NCBI GenBank assembly: GCA_000182565.2
Contig: KQ257455.1
DNA length: 64,000 nt
Reading direction: 5' to 3' (one strand)
DNA from: Spizellomyces punctatus DAOM BR117
Lineage: Eukaryota
Part shown: positions 13,964 through 20,482 of the stretch, piece by piece
How the letters are laid out: every line of letters starts with the position of its first letter
How positions within the stretch are numbered: the stretch's first letter is position 1
Program-made: the position numbers and the translations under genes
Notes under the pieces: generated by a model
What the model saw: the letters and a program-made list of their open reading frames with translations, nothing else
Databases searched by the model: none
What the model was told of the DNA's origin: nothing

Positions 13964-16019
13964 TTACATAACAAGACACTTGTCTTTCTTCTTGTCTCCC
14001 TTTGCGCTCCCGCTGCTCCTGCGCGAGGTATCACCTTGCCCTGCCCTCCCATGACTATGACTCGCATATTCCGCCTCTTGCTGTCTTCGCACATATGCAT
14101 CATGTCTGACGTTCTCCTCCTCCTGGAGTGAGAGTGCTAGCGCCAAGTCCGATGACGCTTGAGTGGCCTCGCGTCCTTGACCTCCGACATCCACGTAGTC
14201 CTCCAGGCCGATCATGCTAGGCTGTTGTCCTCCTGAAAGGTTTGCACTCGGGATATGCTCTGATTCGCCAGACGTTTCGAATCGGTTAAAGCAACCATCC
14301 ACAAATGACGAGTCTCCTTCCACGTTATCCATTGTCTCCCACACGACAGCTTCGGCTCCTACGAATCCTTGGTCGGTAACAAGTGTATACAATGCAATTG
14401 TACCGTCCTTTCCGACCCGCTTGAACAAAGTGCAAAAATGATTGTTGCGGAATAATACCGCCAGCGAATTAGGTTCCAAAGTTTCACATAGAGTTTGTAG
14501 TCCATGGTAGGTCAGCTGTGACGCGGTTGCATCTAAAAACCCTTTGCATACAAGGCCCTCATGAATGAGTTGGTCGCGCTTCCGAGATGCCTCTTCATAT
14601 TCTTCTTCGGTCACCATTTTCTCTTTGCCTTTTGCTTGATGTGCCGCTGCAATCTCACCCTCGATAACCTTTTCCACAACTTGATTGTAACTTCCGCATT
14701 CAGAAACTACCACACGATACGTCTCCTCATCTTGGGGATCTACGGTCCAGCCATGACATAATATAATTTTGAAGAGATCAAACACCAGGAGACTGGAGGT
14801 TACTTCGAAGGAGAAGGGTGAATCGAAGCGTACATTGACATCCAATCCTGTTTGTAATGTCTGCATGTATAATGGATCAGTATGTGCACAGTACAAAGTG
14901 AAATGTGTATTTGAAGAAAGAGTTGATACCCACTGGTATGATCTCAAGGACATCTGTGAAATTCTTTGAAAAGTCTGCGGATGTATGACGGACGGATGAA
15001 AACGATGGTGATGTAGGGGATGATGCATTGGGACTACTCAGGGGTAGCCGGGTTGTCAGCCAGTCTCCTATTAGCTCAACAATATATTCATAATCCACTT
15101 CATCTCTTTCATATCTGATTTCGATATCTCCCCTCAACAGCAGCACATTGCAGAGTGCGAGGAGCGGACAAGGTCCATTGCGATTTTGCGTGATAATCTT
15201 GAGTCTTCGTGGGGTATCCGTCCTTGGATCCAAGTACGTGATCGGTTTAAGTCTGTAAGATTTATCAGCCGATTGCTGTGCGGGAAGATCGGACTGCGGG
15301 GGAGGGTGCGGCGAAGGTGACGGAAGGGATGAGCGACGAGGACCAACAGGCGGACGCTGAGGCTCATGTTGTTCTTGGGACGTCCCATCTGCTACAGTTG
15401 GAGCGTTTCCCGTGTTCTCTGCTGTATTTTCAATGGATTGACTTGTTGCTGTGTGTGAACGTGTCTCAACCTCTTTCGTAGAGTCGGTTATTTCTGGATG
15501 GTGTGATGTGGTTGGGGTGGAAGCTAGCAGCTCAGTTGGCAAAGACTGCGATTGTGACGGTACAGATTCCAACTTTGAGACATTCAATAGGGTAGCTTCA
15601 TGCAGAGAGGACACGCCCGGTTCCTCTTGTGATAGCGACTCTTGTGCTCTTTCTGCTGGTGCTTGGCGCTCCTCAAGGAGACCCACATGCTTCTCCGGCA
15701 CGATAGAGTCGTTCGCGTTCGCAGCCTGTGTGGTATTTGCCGTAGGCTCTACGGGAGGCGCTTGTACATCCTTGTCGTTTATAGCAGCAACGTCAGATGG
15801 TGGAGAGCTGACTGTGCGTTCAATTTCGCCTGCCGCGGTTGAAGAGAGGTTGATATCCTGGGGTTGTTCATGTTCGACGGTTGTGTCGCTCGCTTTGGCA
15901 TCGCTACCAGCCCGCGAGGATGGTGACTTTTGCTCTGGGCCGTCATGTATCTCGTATGAATATGGGTCGTCGTCGTCTGCTGCTGCTGTGAGCTGCTGCT
16001 GCTGCTGCTGCTCTGACAT
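13964..16019 (-). CDS. MINDY1/2-family (FAM63/DUF544) K48 deubiquitinase
   Basis: Catalytic IITQNRNGPCPLLALCN and LFRNNHF motifs, MIU-like SDLALALSLQEEE, and C-terminal CaaX KKKDKCLVM. One intron at about 14856-14931. Confidence 0.9.
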
Positions 16020-16136
16020 TGTTCAACCCAAAAGCCCAAACTCCTTCAGCCCTCGTCGTGCACACAAAAGACTGTTTATCAAGAAAGCACGCGCTCTGAA
16101 CGCTGGTTACGTGTTTAACGCCTGCTATGCCAACTA

Positions 16137-16140
16137 CATA
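16137..16140 (+). other. CATA target-adjacent motif (TAM); includes the left TA target-site duplication (16139-16140)
   Basis: caactaCATA|gtgcgg at the left junction. CATA is the TAM reported for S. punctatus Fanzor1. Confidence 0.85.
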
Positions 16141-16168
16141 GTGCGGAGCCGATGGGTATTGGCACTAG
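16141..16168 (+). repeat. Left terminal inverted repeat
   Basis: gtgcggagccgatgggtattggcactag is the exact reverse complement of 18252-18279 (30 bp if the TA is included). Confidence 0.97.
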
Positions 16169-16243
16169 TACAGTGATTCCAACCAATTGAATCATAATTT
16201 TACTCGATTTAGACTCATGAACTATGGTTTGATCCAAAAATCC

Positions 16244-16250
16244 TATATAA
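16244..16250 (+). promoter_or_regulatory. Putative TATA box of the Fanzor gene
   Basis: TATATAA lies 57 bp upstream of ATG 16301, inside the element and downstream of the alternative in-frame ATG at 16217. Confidence 0.45.
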
Positions 16251-16300
16251 GTCATCGTGCCCATTTTCCCAGGCTTTCATCTTTTTCCACAGATATCATC

Positions 16301-18184
16301 ATGCCATCAAAGAAAAAGCAAAAACTCGAAAAACTCGACAAACCTACTTGCTTACATACCTGCAACAAGACTCCCTTTGCAAAAGCTTTCCTGCCAAACG
16401 AGATCTACCGCCAACGGCTTCTAGATTACATCGCCATCATCCATCAACTTGCTGACCACGCTTCCCACGCTCTCAAATTCTACATCCTATCTGCACCATC
16501 CTTCACCGTGAACGAGGAGACCATCGAAGCGATTCTCTATCTTCTCAACAAAGGAGAGGCATGGCAACCAAAAACTGATGCAAAGAAGGCGCTACGCAGA
16601 TGCTTGTTGCCATACATTCAACGGTACTGCCACATCATCGGCTTCGTTCATCCAAATCTACAAAAAGAGCAGCAATCAGTCAATTACCTGACAGTGAGTA
16701 TGATGACGAACCTGAAAGTCAACGTTCAAGAGCATCTCATGCAGATGCTCCTTTGGTATATCAATCTGCAGCTTGACGTGAAGGGACAGAAGCAGCGACT
16801 GCCACTGAAAAGCGATGCGCGGAAAGCTTTCTTTACTCGGCTACGCTACTTGAAGTCGGTTTTCCTTTTCGAAACAATGCCAGAATCGCTGGATGACCTG
16901 AGCATTCTTGAAAACGAGATTTTAGAAGAGATCTGGACACTTAACCTGCCATTTCCTGATCAAGACAAGCCGCTTGCCTACCTCATTGCCATCGACGCGA
17001 TGTCCTTCTTTCCTGCATACTGCCGACTGTCAAAGTTGTTCGAGCAGCAAGGCTTTCGACAGTTCAGCGCGATACCTCTGCGCCGCTCTCTCATCCAAAG
17101 CCATGTGCGGATTGACACCGTCATCCTCTACTCTCATGTTCTTTGCATCACGCGACGAGAAGCAGAAGCCGTAGAGAAGGTCGATTTATGGTTGCGCGTC
17201 TGTAATCTACGTACCAAAGCTTTTCGGTCTCGCTGTGGTATGCATTTTGAAGGCTCGATCACGACGGACGGTACCTCGGTGTCAGTTTACTTGAAACATC
17301 CTGAAGCTGACAAGTATGGAAAACGCAGCGGAGGGAAAAAGTCAGCAAACACGATGGAGGCAGAGGTTAAAGCGCTTTATGTGGAAAACAACTTATCTGC
17401 TTGTCAAGAGAACTTTGTTGTTATCGACCCAAACAAGCGCGATCTTCTCTACTGCCAAGACAGCATTGGTACGACGTTCCGTTACACCGCCAACCAGCGA
17501 GCCGTGGAGACAGGTAGCCGGCGATTTGCAAAGAGACGAGAAGCAATGAAGAAAGAAGCTGGAGTTGACCTCATAGAATCACGTATCCCAAGCCACAAGA
17601 TGATGAACGTCATGGACTTTACTCGCTACCTTCTCGTTCGTCGCGCAGATTCGGATCGTCGCAAGGAATTCTACTCCCACCCTGCCCACACACGGTGGAA
17701 GTGGCATGCATTTATAAACCGTCAGAAGAGTGAATCGAACCTCATATCCAACATGCACAACAAGTTTGGGAGGAACTTTACCATTGTGATGGGTGATTGG
17801 AGCGACGCCGGTCGAACTACGAGATTTCAGACCTCATCAAAGACAAAAGGCTGGCGCACCCTCTTTAAGCGCAACCGCATTGATTGTTTCCTTCTCGACG
17901 AGTACAAGACCTCATCTGTCTGCCCTCACTGTTCCTCTGACGTTGAAAAAGGCTTCAAAACACGACCTCATTCAAGACCTTATCGACGACGAGAAGGCAA
18001 GATTGAAAAAGTCCACGGATTGCTGGGTTGTACCAACCCTAACTGTCAGCAAGACTGGACGATGCGCTACTGGAATCGAGATACGCTGTCAACCTGCAAC
18101 ATGCTGATGATCGTGCAATCAATGTTGGATGGGCACTGTAGACCAGAGGTGTTCAGCAGGAGGAGTGTTCCAGCCGTAGCATAG
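16301..18184 (+). CDS. Fz1: Fanzor1 RNA-guided DNA endonuclease (TnpB/Cas12-related RuvC), 627 aa
   Basis: NLS-like PSKKKQK. RuvC-I VVIDPNKRD (D376), RuvC-II LLDEYKTS (E534), zinc finger CPHC..CTNPNC (C541/544/577/582) and RuvC-III WNRD (D594). Closely resembles SpuFz1 as I recall it. Intronless. Confidence 0.95.
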   Translation: MPSKKKQKLEKLDKPTCLHTCNKTPFAKAFLPNEIYRQRLLDYIAIIHQLADHASHALKFYILSAPSFTVNEETIEAILYLLNKGEAWQPKTDAKKALRRCLLPYIQRYCHIIGFVHPNLQKEQQSVNYLTVSMMTNLKVNVQEHLMQMLLWYINLQLDVKGQKQRLPLKSDARKAFFTRLRYLKSVFLFETMPESLDDLSILENEILEEIWTLNLPFPDQDKPLAYLIAIDAMSFFPAYCRLSKLFEQQGFRQFSAIPLRRSLIQSHVRIDTVILYSHVLCITRREAEAVEKVDLWLRVCNLRTKAFRSRCGMHFEGSITTDGTSVSVYLKHPEADKYGKRSGGKKSANTMEAEVKALYVENNLSACQENFVVIDPNKRDLLYCQDSIGTTFRYTANQRAVETGSRRFAKRREAMKKEAGVDLIESRIPSHKMMNVMDFTRYLLVRRADSDRRKEFYSHPAHTRWKWHAFINRQKSESNLISNMHNKFGRNFTIVMGDWSDAGRTTRFQTSSKTKGWRTLFKRNRIDCFLLDEYKTSSVCPHCSSDVEKGFKTRPHSRPYRRREGKIEKVHGLLGCTNPNCQQDWTMRYWNRDTLSTCNMLMIVQSMLDGHCRPEVFSRRSVPAVA

Positions 18185-18206
18185 AGCGAGAGATTGGTTA
18201 GATTAG

Positions 18207-18296
18207 CCTTTCCGAGCCGGTTGTCGCGCGGTTCAATCCCTGGTGCGGGTGCTAGTGCCAATACCCATCGGCTCCGCACTAACCAACTCCCATTTA
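18207..18296 (+). ncRNA. Putative omegaRNA: about 75-nt scaffold (18207-18281) plus about 15-nt guide from the host flank (18282-18296, accaactcccattta)
   Basis: Pairings visible: gagccggt 18214-21 with atcggctc 18267-74, cgcgc 18225-29 with gtgcg 18243-47, and gggtg 18247-51 with taccc 18262-66. The position between stop codon and right end matches TnpB/Fanzor reRNA architecture. Ends are inferred. Confidence 0.85.
18252..18279 (-). repeat. Right terminal inverted repeat (doubles as the 3' part of the omegaRNA scaffold)
   Basis: ctagtgccaatacccatcggctccgcac, followed by TA. Confidence 0.97.
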
Positions 18297-18461
18297 GCGA
18301 TAGCACCCTTCTTGAAACTCGGAATCCTGCTCGTTTCCTTCCTTTCTGGACAACGACCTGCGCCTTATTTGGACCAAAAAGCCTCCATACCAGATAACAA
18401 AAACGCAAAGTCCTTTGCTGAGCAGCCTATCCAAGAAGACCTGTAGATCAGACGCGACCAC

Positions 18462-20482
18462 ATGTCTTCTGGAAGCGAATCGTCGCCGTCAGAGAGCTCC
18501 TACTTTAGCCGCAAGAATGGAGTGGAGAACATATCCTTGACCCGGTTACCCAATCTCGCCTCTCCCAGGTTAATGACACCAACTTCGCAACTCGCAGAGA
18601 CTGCTGTGGGAGTGAGGGAAGCTGCAAAATGCATAGGTATTTGACATTTTGCTGACAGAGCCTTGGCGCATTTTCACAAAGACTTCACCATGAACTTTTC
18701 TTATTGGGGTCAACGCTCCCCCAACCTTGCCAGAGATAGTAGTAATCCCTTTTTTCTTTTAGGACGTGCCTTGGTGAAGTTGGAGCGCCCGCAAACTGTC
18801 ATGCTCGTGGCAAAAGCACTAGACGCAAAGATTATCAAATTCACCCGGCAATTAGCCTGCCATCTTATCGACACCCCCCGAACGTCTTGCGGACACAAGG
18901 GGTTAACTGTGTAGGTTGCAAGAGTGTAATTCCAAACCCGGCGATTGATTGGGCACATTGTTAACAAGCGCTAATTTCCCTTTAGATATATTGATTCCAA
19001 ATTTCGCACTCATCCTGCATTCAGCTTTGACCGGCTACTGGCTTCTCATCCCCACTATGCCGATCAGCTCAAGTTTTGGACGCCAGAACTGTGCGCAACG
19101 CAAACAGATCACATCGATTTCATCATCACTCTTGGCGGAGACGGAACGGTAATCTACACGTCGTGGCTCTTCCAGCACGCGCAAGTACCTCCAGTTGTTC
19201 CCTTCGATCTGGGTTCGCTTGGATTTTTGACCAACTTCAACATCACAAACATACGCGATGTTCTGCAGCGAGTGATTGGGTGCCGTGGTGCTGGAGTTAG
19301 GGTGAACTTGCGTATGAGACTTAGCTGCACGGTTTGGAGGTCGGACTTTAAAAGCAAAAATAAAGAGGTCTTAGAAGGTCGGACGGCTGAGAAAAAGAGA
19401 CGGGAAGATTTGTGTAGTATCAAGGGCGACGAGGAAGAAGCAGATGGCCGTTCAAAGATAGGGAGACGAGCTTCGAGTCAGCAACCTGATCCTGGCACTA
19501 CACTGAATGGGTTACCCGCCTATTCTTCCGACGACCTAATATCTACCACTCCCGCACCACGACTGAACGATGAACATGCGACTTCCGATATTGGCGACTT
19601 ATTAGATGAGATCTCTTTGCAATTGATGTCAAAAGTTGATCCAGACGAGCTCGACCCAGGACCTGGGACACCGAAACGGATCCGATCAATGCAGTCACTG
19701 GGTACAACGCTCCCCAGTGCTGACAATGCAAAACCTGTGCCAACAGAAACCTTCCAAATATTGAATGACTTGGTAGTCGATCGTGGACCGAGCGCATATA
19801 TGAGCCAATTGGAGTTGTTTGTGGACGATAGACATTTGACTACTGTTCAGGCTGACGGTCTTGTTCTCTCTACACCAACGGGGTCAACAGCTTACTCGGT
19901 ATGTAAAATGCAAACTGTCGGTCATGTCGACAGAATACAAATTGATATTATCAAATATGCTCTGAACAGCTGTCAGCTGGAGGCTCCTTAGTACATCCCG
20001 AAGTCCCTTCCGTCCTCGTTACCCCTATCTGTCCACATACACTTTCCTTCAGACCAATGCTCCTTCCCGATTCCACTGATATACGAATTCAAGTCCCACG
20101 AGATTCGCGGACGTCTGCGTGGGCTAGTTTCGATGGTCGACACAGAATAGAGTTGAAGAAGGGCGACTATGTTACTGTGACCATGTCGCGATGGCCCATG
20201 CCTACTGTTTGCGAGGTAGATCAGGGTACAGATTGGTCTGAAAGTTTGAGAAGATGTTTGCATTGGAACGAGCGCACACGCCAGAAACCGTTTGTTGGTG
20301 AACAAGACAAGAGGTTGGAGAAAGTTGGGGACTCGTTGACGCAACTAGACAGTGAGCTTTCATCAAGCAGTGAAACGAGAACGTCGTTCAACGGCGACGT
20401 ATCTGATGGTTCTTATAGGTGTGAGGACATATGTGAACAAGATGAACAGCGTGAAGATGACGACCCCGGGTTAAGGATGTGA
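18462..20482 (+). CDS. NAD(H) kinase (UTR1/YEF1-like), multi-exon
   Basis: LGGDGT, GSLGFLT, ILNDLVVDRG, QADGLVLSTPTGSTAYS, TPICPHTLSFRP and SFDGR. Confidence 0.92.

Follow-up and report, generated by a model that had tools for sequence, protein, structure and literature searches.

SPu-1, the founding Fanzor element, was originally described as about 2100 bp in length, with terminal inverted repeats (TIRs) of 33 bp and with TA as its putative target-site duplication (Bao and Jurka 2013, PMC3627910), and the omegaRNA of its family has since been sequenced and reprogrammed, and its structure determined by cryo-EM (Saito et al. 2023, PMC10432273; Xu 2024), such that the kind of feature discussed here is already known. 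The omegaRNA of SpuFz1 is described as a 75-nt scaffold followed by a guide of 14-15 nt; native RNAs of 88-90 nt, produced from four loci, extend 14-15 nt beyond the conserved 75 nt into variable sequence (Saito et al. 2023, PMC10432273). The same account gives 19 full-length loci and four expressed loci. The RNA species, RNP formation, the TAM, cleavage and the structure have all been published for the family. The omegaRNA co-purifies with and binds SpuFz1, guides its cleavage and is visible in the structure, where two stems are joined by a linker, with nt 16-22 lying in stem-loop 1 and stem 2 spanning nt 35-75 (Saito et al. 2023, PMC10432273); Xu (2024) likewise places just one stem-loop between SL1 and the guide. 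According to the same study (Saito et al. 2023, PMC10432273), the TAM of SpuFz1 is 5'-CATA, and the left repeat is preceded by a conserved CA.

The locus described here lies in a window of 64,000 nt, the whole stretch analysed, from contig KQ257455.1 of Spizellomyces punctatus DAOM BR117. It is best explained, with a probability of roughly 0.93, as the gene for the omegaRNA of an intact SPu-1 (SpuFz1-type Fanzor1) element, comprised of a scaffold and a flank-derived guide that would target sites behind CATA. Each sequence part of such a gene is present in this copy in exact register (Table 1).

Table 1. Features of the locus and its neighbourhood, numbered from the first base of the window
Feature	Position	Strand	Remarks
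MINDY deubiquitinase gene	13964-16019	-	Start codon at 16019
CATA	16137-16140	+	Left junction; equals the published SpuFz1 TAM 5'-CATA
Left terminal inverted repeat	16139-16171		33 nt including TA; 97% complementary to the right repeat
Fanzor1 ORF (P0001)	16301-18184	+	627 aa plus stop, intact
Spacer	18185-18206	+	Between the Fanzor stop and the scaffold
omegaRNA scaffold	18207-18281	+	75 nt, ends ...CACUA
Scaffold, 5' tail			nt 1-7
Scaffold, stem-loop 1	18214-18234
Scaffold, linker	18235-18240
Scaffold, stem 2	18241-18281
Right terminal inverted repeat	18249-18281		Scaffold nt 43-75
Guide	18282-18296	+	15 nt from flanking host DNA
NAD kinase gene	19227-20482	+

The placement of the RNA is provided by a register test built on the 18 scaffold nucleotides that the cryo-EM paper names by number (Saito et al. 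2023). With 18207 taken as nt 1, all 18 of these match, whereas none of the 199 further registers tried exceeds 10 of 18, and the borders of scaffold and guide given in Table 1 follow from this match. The sequence-only reading of this DNA had proposed an omegaRNA of 90 nt at 18207-18296, guide included, and this placement proves right to the base. A search of the stretch against Rfam returned no match at E up to 1. The scaffold starts about 22 nt past the Fanzor stop codon and does not overlap the ORF. The guide is unique in the window (one match, itself), and an empty site matching it was not found elsewhere in the window. That the guide is read from flanking DNA beyond the TA, as had also been proposed, is supported for the family by the 14-15-nt extension of the published RNAs past their scaffold (PMC10432273).

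The right repeat constitutes the last 33 bases of the scaffold and, within stem 2, takes in the distal part of the 5' strand, the loop and all of the 3' strand, and the overlap of TIR and scaffold that had been claimed from the sequence is thus real. It might be supposed that 18207-18281 is conserved only as the DNA end of a transposon, bearing transposase binding sites and without any role as RNA, as nt 43-75 are indeed the terminal inverted repeat and the TA ends resemble those of Tc1/mariner-type elements. Scaffold nt 1-42, however, are conserved among copies, yet they agree with the left end at only 4 of 42 positions, compared to 32 of 33 within the repeat. A complete scaffold therefore exists at the right end only, nt 1-42 having no counterpart at the left. 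A pure DNA end is further contradicted by the published co-purification of the RNA with SpuFz1, the guided cleavage and the structure, and no transposase was found for SPu-1 in the published work consulted, all of which makes this explanation exceedingly improbable next to that of an omegaRNA gene.

The region 16139-18281 (2143 bp) represents a full-length SPu-1 / SpuFz1-type Fanzor1 element with an intact ORF. Its size of about 2.1 kb, its TIRs of 30-33 nt, the TA at each outer end and the CA before the left repeat are all features of SPu-1. A single mismatch in 33 positions separates the two repeats, and their 25-nt core occurs at only these two sites in the window, a number of matches reached in none of 100 shuffles. 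The TA at 16139-16140 may be regarded as a putative target-site duplication or as the first two bases of a 30-nt repeat. No second copy was found within the window, either with the 30-nt repeat at up to 9 mismatches or by blastn and tblastn of the element, which returned only the element itself, and exact-pattern scans of metagenome contigs for the repeat end and for stem-loop 1 plus linker yielded 0 and 0 relatives, respectively. A transposase was not found inside the element. The TATATAAG box at 16244-16251, within the element and approximately 50 nt before the start codon (ATG) of the Fanzor ORF, is likely the core promoter of that ORF. The hexamer CCAACT is found in both flanks (16130-16135 and 18283-18288), a few bases outside each TA, an occurrence that chance could produce for a motif of six bases.

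The insertion occupies the intergenic region of a divergent gene pair that encodes a MINDY deubiquitinase and an NAD kinase, and it lies upstream of the MINDY start codon at a distance of about 120 bp. The MINDY gene is comprised of two ORF pieces and, for this reason, probably contains an intron.

The protein encoded by the element, P0001, finds its best match among solved structures in the Fanzor1 of S. punctatus itself (8gkh_P; 1182.7 bits at E = 0 for query residues 2-627). The structure-database matches amount to 3 distinct PDB sequences, every one a Fanzor1: that of S. punctatus, represented by 8GKH and six further entries, and the more distant proteins from Parasitella (3.3e-49) and Guillardia (7.1e-06). 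In the alignment with 8GKH, read by hand with the residue numbers of Saito et al. (2023) and with chain and protein numbering differing by 394, P0001 is identical at the RuvC residues D383, E541 and D606 and at N385, a metal ligand, and it keeps all of the zinc-ribbon cysteines (CxxC...CxxxC). Five of the six TAM contacts (Q129, Q130, N133, R291 and Y345) are retained as well, the sixth, R96, being replaced by Lys; Saito et al. (2023, PMC10432273) describe R96 of SpuFz1 as the residue in contact with the C of CATA. Judged by its sequence, P0001 is a close paralogue of SpuFz1. A Pfam search of P0001 returned no family at E up to 1, so that OrfB_Zn_ribbon (PF07282) was also unmatched, a result that reflects the limit of the profiles on a divergent clade; the name given to the protein by the depositors of 8GKH is 'OrfB_Zn_ribbon domain-containing'.

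The minimum-energy fold of the RNA displays two successive stem-loops at -28.3 kcal/mol, with an ensemble frequency of 0.45. Stem-loop 1 is predicted at nt 8-28 and is followed by a 6-nt linker (nt 29-34) and by stem 2 (nt 35-75) with a loop of 8 nt, and this predicted two-stem fold agrees with the published architecture. The folding energy on its own is weak evidence for a structured RNA (z = -1.70; an equal or better energy is reached by 8 of 200 shuffles), and the case for an omegaRNA stands because of the identity with the published RNA, not because of thermodynamics. Two substitutions in the DNA reads alter pairs of the two-stem fold without breaking them, with 18216 G>A (223/587 reads) changing a G.U to A-U in stem-loop 1 and 18268 T>C (175/559 reads) changing a G.U to G-C, and a rarer one, 18234 C>T (22/611 reads), changes a G-C to G.U. 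The fold thus survives all three substitutions at paired positions among the variants listed. No double compensatory changes occur among these variants, which are all one-sided and come from pooled reads, and they therefore amount to consistency with the two-stem fold and not to proof by covariation.

A different fold had been drawn by the sequence-only reading, in which a long-range stem formed by gagccggt and atcggctc encloses two hairpins. The two 8-mers exist, at nt 8-15 and 61-68, and are able to pair over 8 bp with one G.U, which 18268 T>C would make a G-C; as the actual structure, the stem fails. When forced, it yields -22.3 kcal/mol, a penalty of 6.0 kcal/mol relative to the minimum-energy fold, with a probability of 0.0002 for each of its pairs. 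It is incompatible with either published stem, and both the minimum-energy fold and the solved structure present two successive stem-loops with a linker instead. The common 18216 G>A, moreover, would place an A.C mismatch in the long-range stem where it gives an A-U pair in stem-loop 1. There is accordingly hardly any chance that the enclosing stem is the functional fold, and the two-stem arrangement is retained in what follows.

The border between scaffold and guide is also visible in sequencing reads, as the likeness among genomic copies ends at 18281. The DNA run X20, a ChIP run of a matching organism with 38-nt reads, was aligned from 80% likeness, and its depth, only a rough guide to copy number because the library is from ChIP, is about 560-1335 per direction over most of the 3' part of the ORF and about 290-415 over the scaffold, reaching 84/71 in the bin 18278-18298 and 32-64 in the flank. 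The multicopy depth inside the element thus gives way to a single-copy level at 18281. Loose read ends start behind the same position in 25 reads of X20 and in 156 reads of the cDNA run X19, where a consensus agreement of 0.47 denotes many different continuations, and contigs of X3 diverge at 18281, 18282 and 18293. The sharp drop in conservation after the terminal TA that had been anticipated is hence seen in the DNA depth as well as in diverging reads and contigs. One X3 contig follows this flank as far as 18293 and then enters unrelated sequence; a joint made in assembly or a chimera derived from RNA might account for it. Within the element, the spacer at 18185-18206 is the part least conserved among genomic copies (X20 DNA depth 120/149 in the bin 18173-18193). 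Deletions of 3 nt and 8 nt appear at 18158 and 18183 in reads of the region 18173-18206 and just upstream. Among 24 public sequencing runs listed, 11 contained part of the stretch, none contained at least half of its words and none of those on record as RNA contained the stretch; X24 gave 0 contigs that aligned to the stretch.

Expression was approached through X19, an ordinary paired cDNA library and not one of small RNA, of which about 6 in 100 reads were sampled and whose strand convention is not established. Depth with the first mate on the plus strand is about 2-105 over the 3' part of the ORF, 472 and 794 over 18194-18235, then 324, 96 and 16 in the three bins after 18235, and 0 to about 1.3 beyond 18299. 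The same direction prevails over the ORF, which suggests that the dominant direction is sense. At 18208, 498 of 507 plus reads carry T where the window has C (C in only 9/507), and at 18282 all four RNA reads carry T where the window has A. Since the bases at both positions differ from those of the window, almost all of the X19 RNA derives from paralogues; RNA reads specific to the guide of this copy were not seen in X19, and no pile-ups of starts or ends were reported. Transcription past the TA is supported by the published small-RNA data on which it rests, as described for the native loci (PMC10432273), and the 156 paralogue reads of X19 that run on beyond 18281 into divergent sequence, with read ends and strand not resolved, are in line with it.

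It follows that this copy could hold all the necessary parts and yet be transcriptionally silent, a recent and intact but inactive insertion with an omegaRNA gene that is not used. The bases at 18208 and 18282 are as would be expected of a silent copy, no RNA run is listed with the stretch, and native omegaRNA is described from only four loci (Saito et al. 2023, PMC10432273). The open ORF with its catalytic residues kept, the single difference between the repeats and the perfect register of the scaffold, on the other hand, speak against disuse, and the X19 data come from the small sampled part of a library not made for small RNA. On balance, silence is considered unlikely, though it is the most credible of the rivals weighed here.

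Variants in the scaffold region differ markedly in frequency between RNA and DNA. At 18202, A>C is found in 356 of 440 plus RNA reads vs 1 of 185 plus DNA reads; at 18234, C>T in 457 of 577 vs 9 of 292; and at 18236, A>T in 470 of 571 vs 27 of 319. The variant that makes up most of the scaffold RNA reads (18194-18256) is rare in DNA, and expression seems to be dominated by a single paralogous locus or by very few. In the minus direction, X19 RNA reads cover the repeat at 18236-18281 with depths of 59 and 156, and in 106 of the minus-direction reads the loose end before 18252 reads as the interior of the left end in reverse complement; these ends therefore denote transcripts that run through left repeats and are complementary to omegaRNA nt 43-75. 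One may speculate that nt 43-75 engage in a second, gating pairing, either with nt 8-15 in the free RNA or as a 33-bp duplex with the left-end transcripts. The prospect is a highly unlikely one, but if true it would link omegaRNA maturation with transcription, be it of the element or of its neighbours.

Taken as an omegaRNA gene, the locus would be expected to function as follows. The RNA would start about 22 nt past the Fanzor stop codon, fold as stem-loop 1 and a long stem 2 joined by a linker of 6 nt, with the right TIR, terminal TA included, as the 3' strand of stem 2, and continue for about 15 nt into the DNA beside the insertion. Fanzor would bind the scaffold, the 15-nt guide would find matching DNA behind 5'-CATA, and the site would be cut. 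Because the element sits directly behind CATA, an unoccupied allele would carry CATA and then the guide sequence, making it the natural target; this reasoning draws on the present sequence and on the TnpB model cited by Saito et al. (2023). This copy is presumably expressed, the cutting of empty sites would plausibly aid the persistence of the element, and the repeat may serve as a transposase site, the last being a reasonable half of the proposal that the TIR is under a dual constraint as DNA site and RNA structure. The locus decides neither the biological role of Fanzor cutting nor which transposase moves SPu-1. As for the sequence-only reading, it placed the RNA to the base while drawing a fold that is not trustworthy, and its interpretation is supported yet already in print.

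With Tc1/mariner-type elements the locus shares the TA ends, although a transposase inside this element was not found. The bacterial TnpB of IS200/IS605 (ISDra2) is likewise an RNA-guided RuvC nuclease with a guide RNA that runs from the right end into the flank and a TAM at the left junction, but the omegaRNA here does not overlap the ORF (stop at 18184, scaffold from 18207), the pseudoknot of TnpB is described as absent from the SpuFz1 omegaRNA (PMC10432273), and SPu-1 bears inverted repeats and TA ends instead of hairpin ends and has no TnpA. The 'ghost' Spu-1 loci of the same report (PMC10432273) have a 75-nt scaffold of the same type that ends in the right repeat and is functional with SpuFz1; they are described as being without an ORF, with repeats that differ at seven positions and a stem 2 with a 3-nt bulge, whereas the present locus retains its ORF and has an 8-nt loop in stem 2. 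No difference is seen at the element level from SPu-1 as described by Bao and Jurka (2013, PMC3627910), in whose account the RNA was not then recognised. The closest counterpart is SpuFz1 and its omegaRNA (PMC10432273; 8GKH), from which this copy differs as a paralogue of 627 aa vs 638 aa with many substitutions, including R96K, and with a guide of its own, and with which it shares a 75-nt scaffold and 15-nt guide, the succession of stem-loop 1, 6-nt linker and stem 2, a scaffold that ends in the right repeat, CATA at the left junction and a protein match over the full length.
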